Virus record (IMG/VR): IMGVR_UViG_3300042691_041259
Location: 138,506-202,505 of that record
Length of the DNA stretch: 64,000 nucleotides
Reading direction: 5' to 3' (one strand)
Source of the DNA: a virus
Taxonomy: Duplodnaviria; Caudoviricetes
Part shown: piece after piece, positions 27,120 to 63,572 of the stretch
Layout: the number at the start of each line of letters is the position of its first letter
Numbering within the stretch: the first letter of the stretch is position 1
Translations under genes and position numbers: made by a program
Notes under the pieces: model-generated
Database searches by the model: none
What the model was told of the DNA's origin: nothing
What the model saw: only the letters and a program-made list of their open reading frames with translations

Positions 27120-27173
27120 TTTTTTCTATATATCATCTAATTGATAGAATGTATCTCTGATATATAGAAAAAA
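27120..27173. promoter_or_regulatory. Back-to-back divergent late-like promoters forming a 15-bp inverted repeat
   Basis: TTTTTTCTATATATC (27120-27134) and GATATATAGAAAAAA (27159-27173), each pointing at an ATG (27105 minus, 27183 plus). Confidence 0.7.
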
Positions 27174-27182
27174 TTCAATAGC

Positions 27183-27455
27183 ATGAGCACAAAAACCTAT
27201 AACGAGTTCTTCAAAAGAGTCAACGAGGAGGAGGAAGGCAGAATGTATCTTAATGATCTTCAGGAGATTTCTACCTTTGCCGCGCAAATTCGCGAAATGA
27301 TCGCGCCAGAAGACGAATTGGAAGCTTGGGTCCAGGACAAAATCACGATTGCTCATCATAACATGGACGCCATTTTAGGTTACCTTAAGTCTCTTGAAAA
27401 GGGAGGGACTAATTCAACTTCTGTTGGCGGTTCTACCAATATGAATCTAGGCTAA
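27183..27455 (+). CDS. Small acidic hypothetical protein, capsid-targeting-like N-terminus
   Basis: MSTKTYNEFFKRVNE start; DELEAWVQDKITIA motif; promoter motif directly upstream. Confidence 0.75.
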   Translation: MSTKTYNEFFKRVNEEEEGRMYLNDLQEISTFAAQIREMIAPEDELEAWVQDKITIAHHNMDAILGYLKSLEKGGTNSTSVGGSTNMNLG

Positions 27456-53673: not shown

Positions 53674-54291
53674 TTAGAATAGTTTATTTTTCTTTGAGAG
53701 TTTATGTAACATTTCTCGCCCTTTCTTAATCTTATACCAGACGTCTCCTGGTTTACAGCCAATTTCCTCCGCAATCTCTTCATTGGAAGCCTCCTTAAAG
53801 TATCTCATAGAGATTGCTTTAGATATATCTTCAGGCAGCTGGGAAACAAGAAGTCTTACCAATCGCGATATTTGTTCACGGTCAATCTCTGCATTCATAT
53901 CTACTTCATCAGCGACTGCAAAGGCTTCAGCATCTCGGACATTTGTTGGACGATCATAAGAATCTGCTTCCAGCCGCTTCTTTTTTCTAGGAATACCGCT
54001 AACATAATTATGAAGACATGCAATCATCCAGGTAAAGAACTTGGATTTTTCCGGATCATACATTCTTATCTTTACAAATGTGTTTCCCAGGACTGTCATT
54101 ACAATATCTTCTAGGTCTTCCACCTGTGCTTGCGGAAGTCGACGTTTAGCAGCCGTGTATAGGATTGGCTTATACTTTCGAATGAGGATATTGTAGGCTT
54201 TAGTATCTCCTTCAATAGCAGATTTTACCAGTTCTTTGTCTTCTTCATGCGTGGTATACGCTACTGACTTATAGCCTTTTCGTGTCCTCAT
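53674..54291 (-). CDS. ECF (group 4) RNA polymerase sigma factor
   Basis: Region 2 (ELVKSAIEGDTKAYNILIRKY...EDLEDIV...YDPEKSKFFTWM) and region 4 HTH (LPEDISKAISMRYFKEASNEEIAEEIG...VWYKIKKGREML); no region 3. Confidence 0.9.
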   Translation of the reverse strand: MRTRKGYKSVAYTTHEEDKELVKSAIEGDTKAYNILIRKYKPILYTAAKRRLPQAQVEDLEDIVMTVLGNTFVKIRMYDPEKSKFFTWMIACLHNYVSGIPRKKKRLEADSYDRPTNVRDAEAFAVADEVDMNAEIDREQISRLVRLLVSQLPEDISKAISMRYFKEASNEEIAEEIGCKPGDVWYKIKKGREMLHKLSKKNKLF

Positions 54292-54297
54292 GTTTAT

Positions 54298-54323
54298 TTA
54301 TATTCTTGGAAGATTAGTAGTTT
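54298..54323 (-). promoter_or_regulatory. Bipartite promoter-like motif AAAC-N14-GAATATAA upstream of the sigma gene
   Basis: GAAAC-TACTAATCTTCCAA-GAATATAA, 6 nt before the sigma ATG. Confidence 0.65.
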
Positions 54324-55936
54324 CAGTTCTTTTGGTTTTCAATTGAATCCCATGCATCAATAATGGCTTTTGCAAATACCGGCTCGCGACCAGTCCACCC
54401 TGCAAGTACTGCGCCTCGGTAGAGGTTTTCCGGTAGAATTGAGTTATCATAGCCTGCCACTTGCACCGTGAACACATTCAGTTTTGGGTTCACCTTTTTG
54501 CGGTAGTCGTTAACGAGCTTGAGAACATCGATATGGGAACTACCCGGTGCGTGAACGTATTCAGCGTATTCTCTACGATCTCTGCCAAAAAGCTGCCCGT
54601 GTCCGGCCTGCATATCACTATAGATGAATACCGTATCATAGTGAATTCCCTTTTCCAACGCCTCTTTCCAGAAGAGCCAAATTCCATTTTCGGTAGAGCT
54701 GCCTTGTGAAGCTCCACGTCTAGATACTTCATTCAGCTGGCCCAGAAGACCGTCCCGCTTGGAAACTGGTTCAATTGACAGCTCGTCGCCAAATACTCCT
54801 ACATAGCCTTCATCAGCTTGTTTGGCAGTGATGAGCGATGAGAGATTCGCAATTTCCGCCACAGTAACGGATCCGTATTCGGAATTGAGTGTTCCCCATG
54901 CAGAACCGCTGTTGTCTGATAGGCAAGCCACTTTTCCAGCAAGTTTTGGCATATTAGAAACCGCAATGTCCATGCATTCCTCCAAACCGTCCATAAGGAT
55001 TCGTTTATGATTTACGCTTTCCCCTTTTGCGATTGCCCGGTACGCTGAATAGTAACGGAAAGGAAATTGCTTTCCAGTCAGAACTCCGCCTTTCAGTTGA
55101 TCAATTACCTTTTGAGCTATTTTCAAATCTTGGATTTCAGTAAAGATTCCACGAAGATTTCGCAAAAGCGCCATGTGAGGAACTTTGATAGTTTCCACAA
55201 TCTCAGTCCAGGTCTTGCCTGCTGAACGAAGAGTTTCCCATGTCTGTTCAGTAGACTCTACCTGGATTTTGCCAGTTTTCATAAGTTCATTGATATCATC
55301 GTTGCTAGCATGCGAGATACGTACCAGGTCAATTAATGATTTTCCTTTATACTTATTCAGCTGGTAGCGGCTATACTCCTCCAGACGTTCTGCCCATGTT
55401 CTTTTCAAAAGAGAAGGCAAACCGTTCTTGGAACCTTTAAGAAACATATAATAGTCCAACTGATTGGTAAGGTCATCAGGTCTTCCTGCAATTGATTTTC
55501 CAATAGTTTTCATATAGCCAGGATTCTGTTCATTAAACTTGGCACGTCCTATATGAACAGCAGCTCTTACATAAATCACTGCTGGATTAAGACGCATGTT
55601 GTAGACCTCACGAAGTTCTTTTGCCAGATCCAGCGTTCCTTTAAAGTCATATTCCAGGGATGCTTCAATTGATTTGGTAAATATCTCTACCACATTAGTA
55701 GAATCAAACAAACCTGCAAAAATGTTGTAAGAATGTTTTGATAAAGTTTTAGGAGATTCCAAGCCATCACGGTAATACTGCGGTTCTCCAAAAATTGAGG
55801 ATGCTGCAACAATTCGTAAAGTATCCAGCGGGTTGAGTGCGTATGATGTACCACCCATAAAGTTTTCCACAGAGGTTTTCGCAAAGCGATTCATCGTGGC
55901 AGTTTCTTTGTTGCTGTATTTAGTCAGTCTACTCAT
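54323..55936 (-). CDS. rsr: TROVE-domain RNA-binding protein (Ro60/Rsr homologue) with C-terminal vWA
   Basis: RPDDL, RYQLNKY...SLIDLVRISH, TWE, PHMALLRNL, QFPFRYYSAY, and vWA DNSGS plus IYSDMQ. Confidence 0.9.
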   Translation of the reverse strand: MSRLTKYSNKETATMNRFAKTSVENFMGGTSYALNPLDTLRIVAASSIFGEPQYYRDGLESPKTLSKHSYNIFAGLFDSTNVVEIFTKSIEASLEYDFKGTLDLAKELREVYNMRLNPAVIYVRAAVHIGRAKFNEQNPGYMKTIGKSIAGRPDDLTNQLDYYMFLKGSKNGLPSLLKRTWAERLEEYSRYQLNKYKGKSLIDLVRISHASNDDINELMKTGKIQVESTEQTWETLRSAGKTWTEIVETIKVPHMALLRNLRGIFTEIQDLKIAQKVIDQLKGGVLTGKQFPFRYYSAYRAIAKGESVNHKRILMDGLEECMDIAVSNMPKLAGKVACLSDNSGSAWGTLNSEYGSVTVAEIANLSSLITAKQADEGYVGVFGDELSIEPVSKRDGLLGQLNEVSRRGASQGSSTENGIWLFWKEALEKGIHYDTVFIYSDMQAGHGQLFGRDRREYAEYVHAPGSSHIDVLKLVNDYRKKVNPKLNVFTVQVAGYDNSILPENLYRGAVLAGWTGREPVFAKAIIDAWDSIENQKN

Positions 55937-56628: not shown

Positions 56629-56640
56629 GCCTTATGTGTT

Positions 56641-56675
56641 TAAAAAAAAATCCGCCCATTGTGTGAGCGGATTTT
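56641..56675 (-). terminator. Intrinsic terminator closing the non-coding array
   Basis: AAAATCCGCTCA/TGGGCGGATTTT stem then T9. Confidence 0.85.
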
Positions 56676-57024
56676 CGAAATGACAAGCACGCCATTTCTT
56701 ACGCATGGCATGCAAGATCTTTTCCGAGAATTTTAAGGAGGTGTGGTTTTCGTTACAATTGTGAAGTAGCACCGCCTTCCGCATCGGAATAGTAAGTTTC
56801 CTCTTGTCCTGAGAATCTCCCGTTTGAGAGTTGACTTATGGCGTCGAACCTTTTACCTTTTCTAGCCGAGAAATAGCCGATCCGCCATCTTAGTTCCTTT
56901 TAAAGGGCGCTTTTGATTTGCGGAGGTGATTAGCCTTTTGTAGTTGTTATTGTTTTGGAGTAGCTCAATCAGCCGCTTCAGAACAGTGAGGATATATTAA
57001 AGAACGTGTATTTGTATCGGTTAC
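56642..57024 (-). ncRNA. Candidate Ro60-associated (Y-RNA-like) tandem hairpin array
   Basis: No ORF; own promoter motif and terminator; three stem-loop units each carrying GCTA(C/T)T(C/T)C, plus a 9-bp hairpin. Confidence 0.6.
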
Positions 57025-57029
57025 AGTTA

Positions 57030-57056
57030 ATATATTCTGAGAAATCAAATAGTTTC
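57030..57056 (-). promoter_or_regulatory. Bipartite promoter-like motif AAAC-N14-GAATATAT
   Basis: Just 3' of the tRNA, pointing into the non-coding array. Confidence 0.65.
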
Positions 57057-57075
57057 AGCACATATTAACTTTTTG

Positions 57076-57149
57076 TACTCCCGAAGGGATTCGAACCCCT
57101 GGCCCACAGATTAGAAATCTGTTGCTCTATCCAACTGAGCTACGGGAGC
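57076..57149 (-). tRNA. trnR: tRNA-Arg(UCU), no encoded CCA
   Basis: GCTCCCG/CGGGAGT acceptor stem, AGTTGGATAGAGC D-arm, ACAGA-TTTCTAA-TCTGT anticodon arm, GGTTCGAATCC T-arm. Confidence 0.95.
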
Positions 57150-58704: not shown

Positions 58705-59142
58705 CTAATTTTTTGAGTTTTCTTTCAGTTCGCCAGTTATCCATTCGCGTTCAGCAATAATCATGGCCTCACTTGGTGTAAGCTCGGGCATTGCTCCTAT
58801 AGTCAATAGCGCAGTGTATATCACATGTGCTTGCATGTCATATCGTTGTGAGTTTCTAACAACATCTAAAATTGTTCTCAGCTCCCACGAACGCGACATA
58901 GGATTAAAGTCAATATCCATCTCGCCGTAAACACTCCGTAGATTTTTTATATCAGATTCAGCGTCCTCTATTAAATAATAAAGTGAAGGCTCTAGAGTGA
59001 GCTGCAAAGGATTTTCAAAATCTTTGTTGACTGTGGAGTATTTGATTGGGCAGGAAGATAGTATTCCTTGATTTAGGCGGTTTACCCATTTGAAGAACTC
59101 TTCAAATGTATTTTTTTCTATGTAGACTGTTACTTTCATCAT
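58705..59142 (-). CDS. Hypothetical protein
   Basis: 145 aa ORF. Confidence 0.65.
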   Translation of the reverse strand: MMKVTVYIEKNTFEEFFKWVNRLNQGILSSCPIKYSTVNKDFENPLQLTLEPSLYYLIEDAESDIKNLRSVYGEMDIDFNPMSRSWELRTILDVVRNSQRYDMQAHVIYTALLTIGAMPELTPSEAMIIAEREWITGELKENSKN

Positions 59143-59160
59143 TTGTATATTTATTCAAGG

Positions 59161-59459
59161 GATATATAGTATGTAGATCAGGGTTTCTGTAACCGGGAGT
59201 GAAGGAGTAGAATGGCTCATCTTTTATGAGGGACTTGAAGAACGGGTATTTTCAGTCTTCAGCCGCAGGTGACAGAGTCAACCCAATGATCGAAAAGTGG
59301 CTATACCGTTTATGCTGTGGTGAGAGTCCCAGTCGTAAACAAAATTGTCAGAAGAACTCAATGATCTAAAGGAAGCTCAAAGAAAACACTCAAGGCAAAA
59401 CAGCATTGAATTCCTCTAAGGATTCTCAAAAGTAAAGGAGCCCGAAGGCTCCTTTACTT
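59161..59459 (+). ncRNA. Candidate structured non-coding RNA with possible pseudoknot
   Basis: GC-richer intergenic block bracketed by a plus-strand GATATATAG motif and a 13-bp terminator; several nested helices found by eye. Confidence 0.45.
59430..59459. terminator. Bidirectional intrinsic terminator
   Basis: AAGTAAAGGAGCC-CGAA-GGCTCCTTTACTT. Confidence 0.85.
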
Positions 59460-59472
59460 ATGTTGTATGAGT

Positions 59473-59949
59473 TTAGTTTTGTTTTCGGAGGAAAAATTGA
59501 GGTCTCCATCGTACCGTCCAATTTCCATTTTGACTGTCTGGCATTGCGTTTGCAATATCTCCAGAGGTTGTAGACCCATTCTTAATGTTTTTAATCTTTG
59601 AGTCCTTTTCAACAAATTTGCTGATATAGCCAGCCACCTCTTTAGCAAGCTTTTCTTTTTCTTTGTTCTTTTCGCTATCAGGAAAAGTGATAACCGCAGA
59701 AGTCTCGCCCATTGAATCTTCTAATGAAAAAACATAATAATCAATACCTTCTTTTCGCTGACTTGGAAATAGTAACCCAGAGTCTTCTATTTTAAACTCC
59801 TTTTTTAGTTCGTCTTTGATAACTTTGGAGTATTCTTGTTTATTTTTCTTTACTTGTGACATAACACTTGGGCCTGGATCGTCAACAATAGTTTCCATCG
59901 ACTCGTATAGTGAGTTTACAAACTCATTGAATGAATGTAGATTTGTCAT
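59473..59949 (-). CDS. Putative internal head protein
   Basis: MTNLHSFNEFVNSLYE capsid-targeting-like start. Confidence 0.65.
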   Translation of the reverse strand: MTNLHSFNEFVNSLYESMETIVDDPGPSVMSQVKKNKQEYSKVIKDELKKEFKIEDSGLLFPSQRKEGIDYYVFSLEDSMGETSAVITFPDSEKNKEKEKLAKEVAGYISKFVEKDSKIKNIKNGSTTSGDIANAMPDSQNGNWTVRWRPQFFLRKQN

Positions 59950-60250: not shown

Positions 60251-60925
60251 TTATTTTGTTTGCATTCCACGAGTGTAGAACCAATCCTTTCCGTATGTGA
60301 CACTGAGTTCTTCTCCCGGAGAAATATCTCTCTTGGCATAATAACACATGCATCGCTTAGAAGGATCGGTTTCATACTTTACATTGGGCTGATTGTTATG
60401 GTTATACATAGAACCATAGCCAAAAACAATTGCACATCGCTCTTCGTCAATTGTAAAAAGGTAGTCGCAAATTGGTTCCATTTTTAAAAGCTCCATAGGA
60501 ACTGTGATATACGGAGCCTCTTCAATAAGTTCTCCTTCTTTAATAGGAGCTAGAGCAAATACTCCACGGCCTCCGTGTTCAGACTTACCAATGCCGATTT
60601 TAGACCAGTTTTTTGCATTGACTGAGCGGCTAAGCAACATTCCTGGCTCTTTTACAAATACTGCATTAGCAGGATCTGAAGCAAGAGAGGAGATATTTGC
60701 TTCATTGGTTTCATTAGACTTCTGAGCAATAAGCTCGCGAAGTCCGCTAACAAAATCTTCCGACTTGGCCTTCATATAGAGTTCCAAGTCGTTTGCTGCA
60801 ATCTTTCCCAAAGGCTCAAGTTCTTGATTGAGCTGCGCAATCATCTCTGGAGTCGGAAAGTAATTGAAGGTCTTAATGATTTCTTCAATTCGATTGGCTA
60901 CTATGTATTTATTGTATGCTATCAA
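60251..60925 (-). CDS. SET-domain protein-lysine methyltransferase with N-terminal extension
   Basis: GGRGVFA-x-x-x-I-x-x-GE, MYNHNNQPN and AKRDISPGEELSVTY motifs. Confidence 0.9.
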   Translation of the reverse strand: MIAYNKYIVANRIEEIIKTFNYFPTPEMIAQLNQELEPLGKIAANDLELYMKAKSEDFVSGLRELIAQKSNETNEANISSLASDPANAVFVKEPGMLLSRSVNAKNWSKIGIGKSEHGGRGVFALAPIKEGELIEEAPYITVPMELLKMEPICDYLFTIDEERCAIVFGYGSMYNHNNQPNVKYETDPSKRCMCYYAKRDISPGEELSVTYGKDWFYTRGMQTK

Positions 60926-60937
60926 GGCCTAATATGG

Positions 60938-61210
60938 TTATTTCAATTTTACTGTTAGCTGGTACTCCAGATTTCGCTGGTTATCTTTGTTATACACCTC
61001 AGAATCAAGGCTTGCCTCTTGCTGACCTATGCCACGATATCTAAGTTCATCGGAAACCTTAATATATTTATCTTCAAGTTTTACCTTTGCAAAACTCTGC
61101 TCTTTAATTTGTTTTGCCGTCAAAGGCAATTCAGAACTAAGTAGAATTCCTTTGTTTATGATTAAGCCTTCGCCTTCAATGGCAACCTTTGCATGTACTT
61201 GGTATTTCAT
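60938..61210 (-). CDS. Hypothetical protein
   Basis: 90 aa ORF in operon. Confidence 0.6.
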   Translation of the reverse strand: MKYQVHAKVAIEGEGLIINKGILLSSELPLTAKQIKEQSFAKVKLEDKYIKVSDELRYRGIGQQEASLDSEVYNKDNQRNLEYQLTVKLK

Positions 61211-61241
61211 ATGTGTTTTTCTTTTTCGTTATCTTAATAGA

Positions 61242-63572
61242 TTAGTCCCACCAACGCCAGTCGTTAAGCGAATTCTGGTATCCTGAGTTGTTAAGTAGTA
61301 TTGATTCATATGTGTCTGGACCAATTGCATATAGAGTACGAGTACTTACTCCGCTAGTTGCTATAACTTGGCATCTTTCGCCAACTACATAAAAGTCTTC
61401 ATACGTATCGGTTCCAATATTGACACTTTGTAACAGCGTACCTTCTAAATCATATACTTCAATTACCCAAAAGTTTTCTGCAAGAGCATCTTGCCATCCA
61501 ACATAAACGTTATTTGGGGCAACCCGTATAGTTACGTTTGCCTTTCCTGTTATGTCAATTTCTGCTGGCGGGATATAATTTGAATTAAGAATTCTTATTG
61601 AAGTGCTGCCATACTGAAGAGCTGTAGTACCTGATCGTTGGTACTCTATGTATGAACTAACATTGGTTGATTCTGAGCGGTAAGAATCGCTATATGCAGG
61701 AGTAAAAGTAGCAATTCCTTCTGCGAGATCTCCAATGGCCGAATTAAAATAGTAGGTAGCATCCTCACCATTTTGAGCTAAAAAGAAAGTATCTCGGTTT
61801 ACGTCCCAACCATTGTTGGTAGACATCCATAGATCGGATCCCATAAGTGCCAGCGTGCTATTATTGACTATATTAAAGTATTGCACATCGCCTTCTCTGC
61901 TGTTATCATAATATGTTATCACAGTATAATCTGTTCCAAGAGGCTCTATATCAAAGTAGTTACCGCAATCTGCATAAAGACTTGGAAGCGTTGAATACGT
62001 CCAATCTCCATTATCTTCCAAAAACAGAAGTTCCAAATCGGTATTACCTGCCTGGTTGACAAATAAAATAGCTGGCAGGCTTACACTGTAATTTGGGGAA
62101 ATACCGAAAGTTTCGGCTTCGCCAATAGTGGGCTCGTGAAAGAAAAAGCCACCTGCGGGGTTAGTCCACATAATTCTTGCAGCATCATATCTATCCATTT
62201 TTCCATCATATGTACTTCCGCTATGCAATACTATTAGAAAATTTTCTGCTCCATTTGGATTTCGCAATAAGAAGTCATATTTTACATAGCGGTCATCATA
62301 AAATATAGAATAGTTAGGGTATATAGTACTATCAATTAGGTAATCTGAAAGAATTCCTAAATTATGATTGTATTCAACCAATGCATTATCCAATCCTACA
62401 GTCGCTCCTGTGAGATAGAAGATTATTTTGTCTGACCCGACTAATTCAGTATTGTCAAGGCTTGCATGATATGAAGAGAAATCAAAATCTTCATATGTAC
62501 CATCCGTGTTAATAATTCGCAAAGTGTCCACTTGAGTGCTTGCAAAAGCCAACTCTACACTTACTTCAGAGCTTTCAGCAGCGCCTATAAATGTAACAGT
62601 AACTCCCGTGACATCAGAAACAAAAGCACCCACTGGTATACCGGTTCCAGTAATTAGATCGCCTATTCTGATAGAGGCATTGGGTGCATCTAGGGTTATA
62701 GTGCTTTCGCCAATGTTAAAAGAAGCAGTACTAGTAGTGTTTGATGTATTTGCAAATACTGCGTATGCAAGATCTGCTGCTTGAAATAGGCCACTTTCTA
62801 TGTCATTAGGACCAGCGCTTTCTCCGTGAGTAAAAGCTTCTGTTACCTCGGTTACAACTCCAGTATTTGCATTAACAAAATATACTCGGTTTTCACCAGT
62901 TTCTGTTGATTGGTAGTAGATTGAAAAAGTTCCATTCAGAGTACATTCATCCCAACTAGGATATCCAAAATAAACATAATCTTCTACATCTACATCGGTA
63001 AATGTTTTTGTGTATAAAACATTTCCGTTCCACCACTTTAAAACAACATCACCTGATGGATTTGTATATGAAATAGCTAATGCCAGTCCATCAAGACTAT
63101 TTTCATTGTAGTTGTTTCCAATGTTTTCTATGTGTTGAACTAGATTTCCTACAGAATCAATAATAAAGAAATCGTTTTGCGAGCCATTTATTTGAACATA
63201 AAGTCCATAGCCTCGACCATCAATTAGGTCATCTATATAGTAATTAGTAACATCCACAGAGGTGATTCCGGTATCTCCCTGTATGAATTCTAGTGTCTCA
63301 TAATTGGTTCCGATCCAGTAAAGAGTTCCGGTATCAGTATTGTTATACATTGTAACAGAGCTTTCGGCTTCTACTACAAGAGCTGCTGGGTTTCCGCCAC
63401 CACCGCCGCCACCAGCAACACCCGGAGGCGCTGATGAGGATGACTTCATTGCTGCTTCATACAGCATGCGCATTTCCTCTTGCTCACGCAAAAAGACTTT
63501 CCACTTACGCTCCATTTCTTGCTGGGTAGCCCAAGGAGTACCGAATTTTCGATTGAATAGTTCTCTGTTCAT
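61242..63572 (-). CDS. Large beta-rich putative virion surface protein
   Basis: 776 aa; short helical N-terminus, poly-Gly linker, N/D/T/Y-rich beta body. Late-like promoter motif upstream. Confidence 0.6.
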   Translation of the reverse strand: MNRELFNRKFGTPWATQQEMERKWKVFLREQEEMRMLYEAAMKSSSSAPPGVAGGGGGGGNPAALVVEAESSVTMYNNTDTGTLYWIGTNYETLEFIQGDTGITSVDVTNYYIDDLIDGRGYGLYVQINGSQNDFFIIDSVGNLVQHIENIGNNYNENSLDGLALAISYTNPSGDVVLKWWNGNVLYTKTFTDVDVEDYVYFGYPSWDECTLNGTFSIYYQSTETGENRVYFVNANTGVVTEVTEAFTHGESAGPNDIESGLFQAADLAYAVFANTSNTTSTASFNIGESTITLDAPNASIRIGDLITGTGIPVGAFVSDVTGVTVTFIGAAESSEVSVELAFASTQVDTLRIINTDGTYEDFDFSSYHASLDNTELVGSDKIIFYLTGATVGLDNALVEYNHNLGILSDYLIDSTIYPNYSIFYDDRYVKYDFLLRNPNGAENFLIVLHSGSTYDGKMDRYDAARIMWTNPAGGFFFHEPTIGEAETFGISPNYSVSLPAILFVNQAGNTDLELLFLEDNGDWTYSTLPSLYADCGNYFDIEPLGTDYTVITYYDNSREGDVQYFNIVNNSTLALMGSDLWMSTNNGWDVNRDTFFLAQNGEDATYYFNSAIGDLAEGIATFTPAYSDSYRSESTNVSSYIEYQRSGTTALQYGSTSIRILNSNYIPPAEIDITGKANVTIRVAPNNVYVGWQDALAENFWVIEVYDLEGTLLQSVNIGTDTYEDFYVVGERCQVIATSGVSTRTLYAIGPDTYESILLNNSGYQNSLNDWRWWD

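Follow-up and report, generated by a model that had tools for sequence, protein, structure and literature searches.

A probable structured noncoding RNA gene, read against the prevailing gene orientation, in a clade of putatively T4-like jumbo phages

The subject of this study is an element near the end of a 64-kb stretch of viral DNA (the window, from whose first letter all positions are counted unless a record is named), which forms the final part of the 202.5-kb IMG/VR record IMGVR_UViG_3300042691_041259 (G000 below). Taken as a whole, the element is best explained, with modest confidence, as an independent gene at about 59175-59462 on the plus strand, which specifies a noncoding RNA of ~290 nucleotides (nt) belonging to a new family. 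For the narrower statement that it is a noncoding RNA gene of the plus strand our confidence is high, and the predicted fold is likely to be right in outline. As far as it was searched for, the family appears confined to one freshwater clade, putatively T4-like jumbo phages of putative Bacteroidota hosts.

The element looks like a stand-alone small RNA (sRNA) gene, with a promoter-like motif, an intrinsic terminator of its own and no conserved open reading frame (ORF), and it faces away from nearly all genes of the phage, since by a crude gene call ~190 of the 199 genes in the whole record are on the minus strand. An initial annotation, made from the letters of the window, had proposed here a self-contained plus-strand unit, antisense to the genome, giving rise to a novel phage noncoding RNA of no recognised family. 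This overall call is right. The orientation of the motif, the terminator and the strand of the genes agree with it, Rfam scans are negative for the element, the homologue search and covariation check which it had called for gave 10 further homologues with compensatory changes above controls, and the sequence is present in RNA libraries. The motif, the terminator hairpin and all six complementarities that it had quoted do lie at the places given for them; the structure drawn by eye from these complementarities is mostly wrong. The predicted unit is bounded as follows.

59161-59169, plus strand: GATATATAG, a promoter-like motif that directly precedes the RNA
59175-59462, plus strand: predicted transcript, ~285-290 nt, delimited by promoter motif and terminator
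59430-59459, plus strand, usable in both directions: intrinsic terminator hairpin, 13 pairs (6 G-C) with a 4-nt loop

Homologues and the predicted fold

Homologues were sought on the contigs of ~20 metagenomic relatives of the protein of 145 amino acids (aa) encoded beside the element, and by a 3'-domain pattern scan of IMG/VR and the JGI metagenomes. Ten further distinct homologues (L003, L005, L008, L011, L013, L014, L015, L016, L036 and L037) were obtained, which makes 11 with the window. In all of them the element is next to the 145-aa gene, on its upstream side and in divergent orientation, and the gene on the far side of the RNA differs among them. The promoter-like motif, the fold and the terminator are common to all 11. 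The 5' part of the RNA is predicted to form a rod composed of these elements.

59176-59291, plus strand: 5' rod of nested helices P1 to P4b, 116 nt, irregular
59176-79/59288-91, plus strand: outer part of P1, GAUC
59181-83/59282-84, plus strand: inner part of P1, GGG with CCC, varying as GGA/UCC, GAA/UUC and GGAAA/UUUCC
59186-94/59268-76, plus strand: P2, UCUGUAACC with GGUGACAGA, inner pairs ACC/GGU, GCC/GGC, ACU/AGU and GCU/AGC
59196-97/59263-64 and 59200-04/59257-61, plus strand: P3, GG..UGAAG with CUUCA.CC
59210-15/59246-51, plus strand: P4a, in which 6/6 pairs covary (AUUGC/GCAAU, GUCUGC/GCGGAC, CUGC/GCAG)
59220-24/59237-41, plus strand: P4b, UCUUU with UGAAG...
59225-59236, plus strand: apical loop UAUGAGGGACUU, 12 nt, its GGGACU core kept in 9/11 homologues

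Two domain covariance models (R1 and R2) were used in place of one whole-RNA model of ~295 positions. For the 5' model, a nested structure was drawn by hand on the window and L005, and the nine other homologues were then aligned; MAFFT alone misaligns P1, P2, P8 and parts of P9. In the resulting alignment, 94% of the cells of the rod are paired, compared with 27-52% when the 3' partner is slid, and both-side changes occur in 16 of the 34 pairs, compared with 6.7 +/- 1.7 in shuffles (a level that 0/500 reach) and 1-6 in slid controls. The compensatory changes can also be read directly in the raw sequences.

The plus strand is favoured because of the asymmetry between G-U and A-C cells together with the promoter orientation: on this strand the rod has 16 G-U cells against 1 A-C, and the terminator has 19 against 6. 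A reading of the opposite strand would make the element a cis leader of the 145-aa gene, riboswitch-like or an attenuator, transcribed past the terminator of the upstream gene. The minus strand does fold well too, the region being better than shuffles on both strands (z of -3.3 on plus and -4.1 on minus), the hairpin is tailed by UUUU when read in that direction, the 145-aa gene follows the element in every case, and one A-C of P6 turns into G-U on that strand. However, the ratios given above (16:1 for the rod, 19:6 for the terminator) point to plus, the conserved promoter-like motif faces plus, transcription of the 145-aa gene from a GATAAATA-like motif by its ATG would begin downstream of the element, and relatives have the 145-aa gene without it. 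Of the alternatives considered here we find the minus-strand leader the least credible.

Coding was considered as well. A reading frame runs through the 5' rod (VKEYSxTSSMRDLKNExFQASA...PMIDK); roughly half of the homologues keep it open over 24-50 codons, and it may be asked whether it encodes a small protein of ~24-50 residues. It starts from GTG or ATG in the window, L005, L014, L015, L036 and L037, where the peptides are similar, and it runs for 24 codons in L003 before a TGA cuts it. On the other hand, it is interrupted in 6/11 homologues: the window has a stop at codon 4 with an ATG restart, L005 a frameshift, and L003 the in-frame TGA and a change of ATG to ATT; the frame is also broken in L008 (12 codons), in L011/L016 and in L013. 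The substitutions are not of the third-position type and compensate for each other between the two halves of the frame, which fits RNA pairing and not coding, and the start codons lie inside P3 or the apical loop, with a leader that is fully paired. A small protein is thus very improbable, and we take the frame as a likely by-product of RNA conservation. The translational element that the initial annotation had seen in a 24-codon frame with a TTG start (59345-59419) does not hold either; this frame is present in the window, and indels shift it in relatives.

Downstream of the rod a second domain is predicted, made up of a hairpin, a stem and a pseudoknot.

59312-17/59330-36, plus strand: hairpin P9, AUGCUG with CAG(U)CGU, 12-nt loop at 59318-59329
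59322-59329, plus strand: 5' strand of pseudoknot P5, GAGAGUCC, within the P9 loop
59420-59427, plus strand: 3' strand of P5, GGAUUCUC, just ahead of the terminator, with GGAUUC in 11/11
59351-59416, plus strand: 3' stem, between the pseudoknot strands
59351-55/59412-16, plus strand: P6, GAAGA with UCCUC, in which 2 pairs compensate (GAAGU/ACCUC, AAAGU/ACUUU)
59359-63/59404-08, plus strand: P7, CAAUG with CAUUG, invariant
Closed by P6 and P7: A-rich loop with invariant AUCUAA and AAGCUYAA and a weak hairpin, 59375-77/59394-96

With the pseudoknot included, 86.8% of the cells in the 3' model are paired, compared with 38-51% in slid controls; 6 of the 35 pairs are compensatory, and covariation scores 0.169, where shuffles give 0.125 (0/500) and sliding gives 0.04-0.09. 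P9 covaries as GGUGCUG/CAGUCACC, CGCUG/CAGUCGCG and GGC-CUG/CAG-GCC, with both-side changes in 2 pairs, and its counts are underestimated since L036 and L013 stay misaligned there even after model alignment.

P5 comprises 6-8 bp, with 92.8% of the cells paired over the 11 sequences and an invariant core of 6 bp; the sole variant is a G in the window and L005, which gives G-U. P9 and P5 are ordered a-b-a'-b', that is, as an H-type pseudoknot, with zero nt between b and a'. Four homologues also have an alternative local hairpin to this arrangement, and the GGGACU of the apical loop could contact the UCCC segment (the complementarity at 59325-59330) as an alternative to P5. We incline slightly towards P5 as a real pairing, and go no further because no compensatory change is found in it.

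The expectation of a likely pseudoknot in the initial annotation may therefore be right in kind, as P5 is plausible, and it fails in the particular pairing, since ACGGGTAT and ATACCGT are paired in 21% of cells in the homologues, a background level. The same background level is found for CCGCAG/CTGTGG (38%), TGAC/GTCA (47%) and CTCAT/ATGAG (52%). Two other helices of that annotation, GGGACT/AGTCCC (kept in 75% of cells) and TGAAGA/TCTTCA (77%), survive through the invariance of both their sides and show no covariation; the latter is also topologically incompatible with P4a, all of whose pairs covary.

Another reading is a ligand-sensing or catalytic RNA (a ribozyme was among the suggestions of the initial annotation), in which mutually exclusive pairings would form a conformational switch or an active site. 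UGAAG/CUUCA stands against UCUUY/RARGA, and the GGGACU loop competes with GGAUUCUC for the UCCC segment; the alternative pairings are invariant and kept in 75-77% of cells, and the pseudoknot topology comes with many invariant unpaired nucleotides. Nevertheless, it is the nested alternative that covaries, no riboswitch or ribozyme family of Rfam matches, and no downstream gene on the same strand is there to be regulated, and we regard a sensing or catalytic RNA as quite improbable.

Transcription signals, RNA libraries and occurrence

The motif GATATATAG occurs 6 times in the window, where 0.37 would be expected, and 20 times in the 202-kb record, 18 of them on the gene strand. It stands 15-66 nt ahead of the ATG of 17 crude gene calls, often just past a hairpin. 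Only 2 copies in the record face plus, namely that of the RNA element and one ahead of a small divergent ORF at 27183. The strand bias recurs in the 143-kb relative G001 (17:2), where one of the 2 opposite-strand copies abuts the homologous RNA, and [GA]ATATATAG is retained directly ahead of the RNA in 11/11 homologues. Because the enrichment, the strand bias and the orientation fit together, GATATATAG looks like a phage promoter that is correctly oriented for a plus-strand transcript. A back-to-back pair of the motif was also seen elsewhere in the window (27126-27134 minus and 27159-27167 plus, 24 bp apart), which would drive a 736-aa gene in one direction and a 90-aa ORF in the opposite one.

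Next to the promoter-like motif of the RNA there is a further motif on the other strand.

59148-59156, minus strand: GAATAAATA, directed towards the 145-aa gene, placed back-to-back with the motif of the RNA

It is separated by 5 nt from the downstream ATG of that gene and by 4 bp from the RNA promoter motif, and it is kept in the homologues as GATA(A/G)ATA, which on the plus strand reads TAT(T/C)TAT(T/C)C just ahead of the RNA promoter. The two motifs look like a divergent promoter pair, with GAATAAATA as the putative promoter of the gene, and given this spacing the 145-aa mRNA may be nearly leaderless. Three enriched upstream motifs were found in G000, each ahead of ~16-17 genes. GATATATAG precedes mostly very large proteins without family match, one of them with a weak head-closure-like match; GAATATAA sits ahead of replication genes (topoisomerase II, DnaB-like helicase, clamp loader); and [GT]ATAAATA, which is 19-fold enriched upstream of genes, sits ahead of the portal gene and also of replication genes. 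Together the three look like a temporal promoter code. The initial annotation had called the promoter of the RNA a late one, which is a tentative label. Late promoters of the T4 type carry a TATAAATA-like box ~6 nt before the start site and serve late (virion) genes; GATATATAG is another box, and [GT]ATAAATA resembles the T4 late box more. The phage also encodes a sigma-70 family factor (similar to extracytoplasmic function factors, with regions 2 and 4; 53674-54291, minus), which could be a candidate reader of one phage promoter class.

At the other end of the unit, the terminator hairpin is placed 13 nt past the stop of a convergent 158-aa gene; its stem covaries, and an A-run and a U-run flank it in all homologues.

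RNA libraries contain the sequence. Of the sampled 31-mers of the element, 28-48% are present in six metatranscriptome runs, which come from five studies (lake, sediment, estuary, marine); for a 1261-nt stretch, 23% of which is the element, the corresponding share of sampled words is 6-11%. These are RNA runs only, and they were partly chosen with the element itself. In each of four runs, all from different studies, a single short contig was obtained (95-100% identical); the four contigs cover 59204-59397, 59190-59530, 59234-59394 and 59201-59387. The contigs stop short of the 145-aa gene, and 3 of the 4 end between 59387 and 59397. The uncovered flanks are a weak hint of a discrete, abundant transcript.

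Regarding its occurrence, the RNA is single-copy in G000 and G001, where each of the two models matches once per genome. Neither model matches at the corresponding site in L006, L007, L010 and L034; in these four a SET-domain gene lies immediately or almost immediately beside the 145-aa gene (at a distance of 52 nt in L034, 965-1016), and the neighbour protein of L034 is 84% identical to that of the window. As it is absent at the syntenic site in close relatives, the RNA appears to be optional and behaves like an inserted or deleted cassette.

Outside the clade, the RNA was not found in bacterial genomes by a pattern scan of 185,579 prokaryote genomes. The 3'-domain pattern gave 2 matches there, in metagenome-assembled contigs of Acidobacteriota and Bdellovibrionaceae, and the 5'-domain pattern gave 14 new matches in IMG/VR; all were judged to be chance, since not one of them was scored by either model at E up to 1. 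No similar DNA turned up among GenBank phages when the locus was searched by BLAST. Rfam 15 on the whole window at gathering scores passes only a tRNA at 57076-57149, and on 59050-59560 at E up to 10 its best matches, which owe their scores to the terminator, reach 11-19 bits where the cut-offs are 41-100.

Proposed action and comparison with known RNAs

On the explanation that we prefer, the promoter-like GATATATAG would drive a plus-strand transcript, opposite to nearly all genes, which the hairpin would terminate. The P9 loop would pair with GGAUUCUC ahead of the terminator, and the resulting H-type pseudoknot would clamp the 3' domain. The RNA would then build up as a stable species and act in trans by protein binding, as a scaffold, decoy or sequestering RNA, and not via one antisense seed. 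Protein binding is favoured over a seed because the conserved positions are scattered among several internal loops, the apical and A-rich loops and the pseudoknot; we propose this action tentatively. The role would be accessory, in host takeover or counter-defence, rather than core, since close relatives are without the RNA at the same site. Optional presence between near-identical neighbourhoods is a signature of an accessory host-interaction function.

Several observations weigh against this explanation. The 3' domain by itself has 9 G-U cells against 14 A-C on the plus strand, 9 of the 14 coming from one P6 position, which is an A-C mismatch in 9/11 alignment rows and would be G-U if the minus strand were read. 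The counts come from alignments that had been fitted to the model and so lean towards it, and P5 is supported by invariance and complementarity with no compensatory change. The RNA evidence consists of assembled contigs of RNA libraries, which reveal neither strand, ends nor level and may include DNA carry-over. No partner protein or target emerged, the 145-aa neighbour being without family or fold match, and the whole case for protein binding is the pattern of conservation.

The main rival, which we nonetheless consider unlikely, is a base-pairing riboregulator, either an sRNA acting in trans or an antisense RNA that, being convergent with the 158-aa gene, would act on the 3' end of its mRNA, with AUCUAA/AAGCUYAA or the GGGACU loop as its seed. 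A stand-alone unit from promoter to terminator is typical of sRNAs, several unpaired stretches are conserved, and the terminator is common to the convergent gene, with one RNA-library contig crossing it to 59530. Against such a regulator, an RNA of ~290 nt which covaries along nearly its entire length is far more elaborate than seed-type sRNAs, and no cis target is constant, as the upstream gene differs among homologues. Moreover, a scan of the phage genome for 11-mer complements, which covers phage targets only, gave background numbers, and its longest complement, of 15 nt (RNA 59325-59339 with G000:C1:118593-118607, minus), involves a part that varies among homologues. This complement falls at codon 262 of a 2187-aa collagen-repeat-like ORF; ~0.1 such matches are expected by chance.

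The window also carries a TROVE/Ro60-like gene of 537 aa (PF05731, 33.5 bits; 54323-55936, minus), whose protein is 76% and 66% identical in two RNA-bearing IMG/VR relatives. As this gene is 3.2 kb from the element, the idea arises that the RNA is a long, divergent Y-RNA-like partner of the phage Ro60. Y RNAs of bacteria and phages are reported to share the strand of Ro60 and to be encoded within ~4 kb of it; Y RNA/YrlA species are 80-130 nt long, build the Ro-binding stem with a GNCGAA(N)G close to the 5' end and have tRNA-like T and D arms (Chen et al. 2014, PMC4201824). The likeness to YrlA/YrlB is that of a structured noncoding RNA a few kb from Ro60, with a long stem closed near the 5' end, in a phage with tRNA and RNA-repair-type genes, and both of the searchable RNA-bearing relatives carry Ro60 too. 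Against the idea, the present RNA is on the strand opposite Ro60, is 2-3 times as long, contains no GNCGAA(N)G (the nearest strings, GAUCGAAAAG, do not fit) and no T or D arm, and gives no match to the Rfam Y RNA and YrlA models at E up to 10. The distance to Ro60 also varies over ~3-9 kb (3.2 kb in the window, ~9 kb in G001, ~4 kb in G002), and the RNA is missing in Ro60-bearing relatives, L006 having a TROVE gene and no RNA at the site. We hold a Y-RNA-like partner to be highly improbable.

Large structured noncoding RNAs of phages and metagenomes without known function, among them GOLLD, ROOL, HEARO and IMES, were reportedly found by Weinberg et al. in 2009 and 2017 through comparative genomics. 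Like these orphans, the present RNA has a stand-alone, elaborate and covarying fold; they are often phage-borne, sometimes near tRNA genes, and seen in environmental RNA libraries. Unlike them, it has its own promoter motif and is limited to one phage clade; it matches none of them in Rfam and is smaller than GOLLD or ROOL.

6S RNA sequesters the RNA polymerase holoenzyme. The resemblance to it is one of idea only, namely an irregular rod with internal loops, and a protein-sequestering RNA would fit a phage with its own sigma factor. In the present case, however, the rod takes up just the 5' 116 nt instead of joining both RNA ends, there is no large central bubble, a pseudoknotted 3' domain is added, and no Rfam 6S model matches.

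T4 itself has the stable species 1 and 2 RNAs (rnaC/rnaD) of 119-140 nt, which are processed from a tRNA precursor on the tRNA strand. The parallel is a T4-type phage with stable structured RNAs near its tRNA genes; by description, the present RNA differs in having its own promoter-like motif and terminator, in lying on the opposite strand and in being twice as long.

A structured phage RNA of such size with covariation, a promoter-like motif, a terminator and presence in RNA libraries is rare, and we know of none from T4-like jumbo phages of Bacteroidota. A bolder proposal would make the RNA the core of an undescribed jumbo-phage activity, a ribozyme or a ribonucleoprotein subunit or decoy that disables defence or seizes host RNA metabolism, with the exclusive pairings as its switch; we think this improbable. 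In practical terms, a small, self-contained family of ~290 nt can be entered as a new RNA family with its own seed alignment and is tractable for probing, pull-down and expression in a host of the Flavobacterium type, with its value limited by the lack of a cultured phage-host pair.

Neighbouring genes and other features

The element is housed between two minus-strand genes.

59143-59472: intergenic gap housing the RNA element, 330 bp, between two minus-strand genes
58705-59142, minus strand: 145-aa gene, on one flank of the gap
59473-59949, minus strand: 158-aa gene, on the other flank of the gap, convergent with the RNA unit

Pfam gives no family for the 145-aa protein, and Foldseek with its AlphaFold model (predicted local distance difference test, pLDDT, of 80) returned no match in the PDB or the AFDB clusters. 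For the 158-aa protein, relatives were sought in IMG/VR and none found. Readings of the element as a K-turn, a hammerhead or a CsrA sponge (GGA motifs) were examined by eye and dropped, the consensus features being absent or not enriched.

The tRNA beside the phage Ro60 gene is a tRNA-Arg(TCT) at 57075-57149. A GGUUCGA T-loop-like string was seen in 56629-57075, a region in which Rfam at E up to 1 gives no match. Beyond the window, two long intergenic regions of the same record, G000:C1:136467-136817 (351 nt) and 60874-61417 (544 nt), have a G+C of 0.456 and 0.417, compared with 0.30-0.39 in most gaps, and these two are candidates for additional noncoding RNAs.

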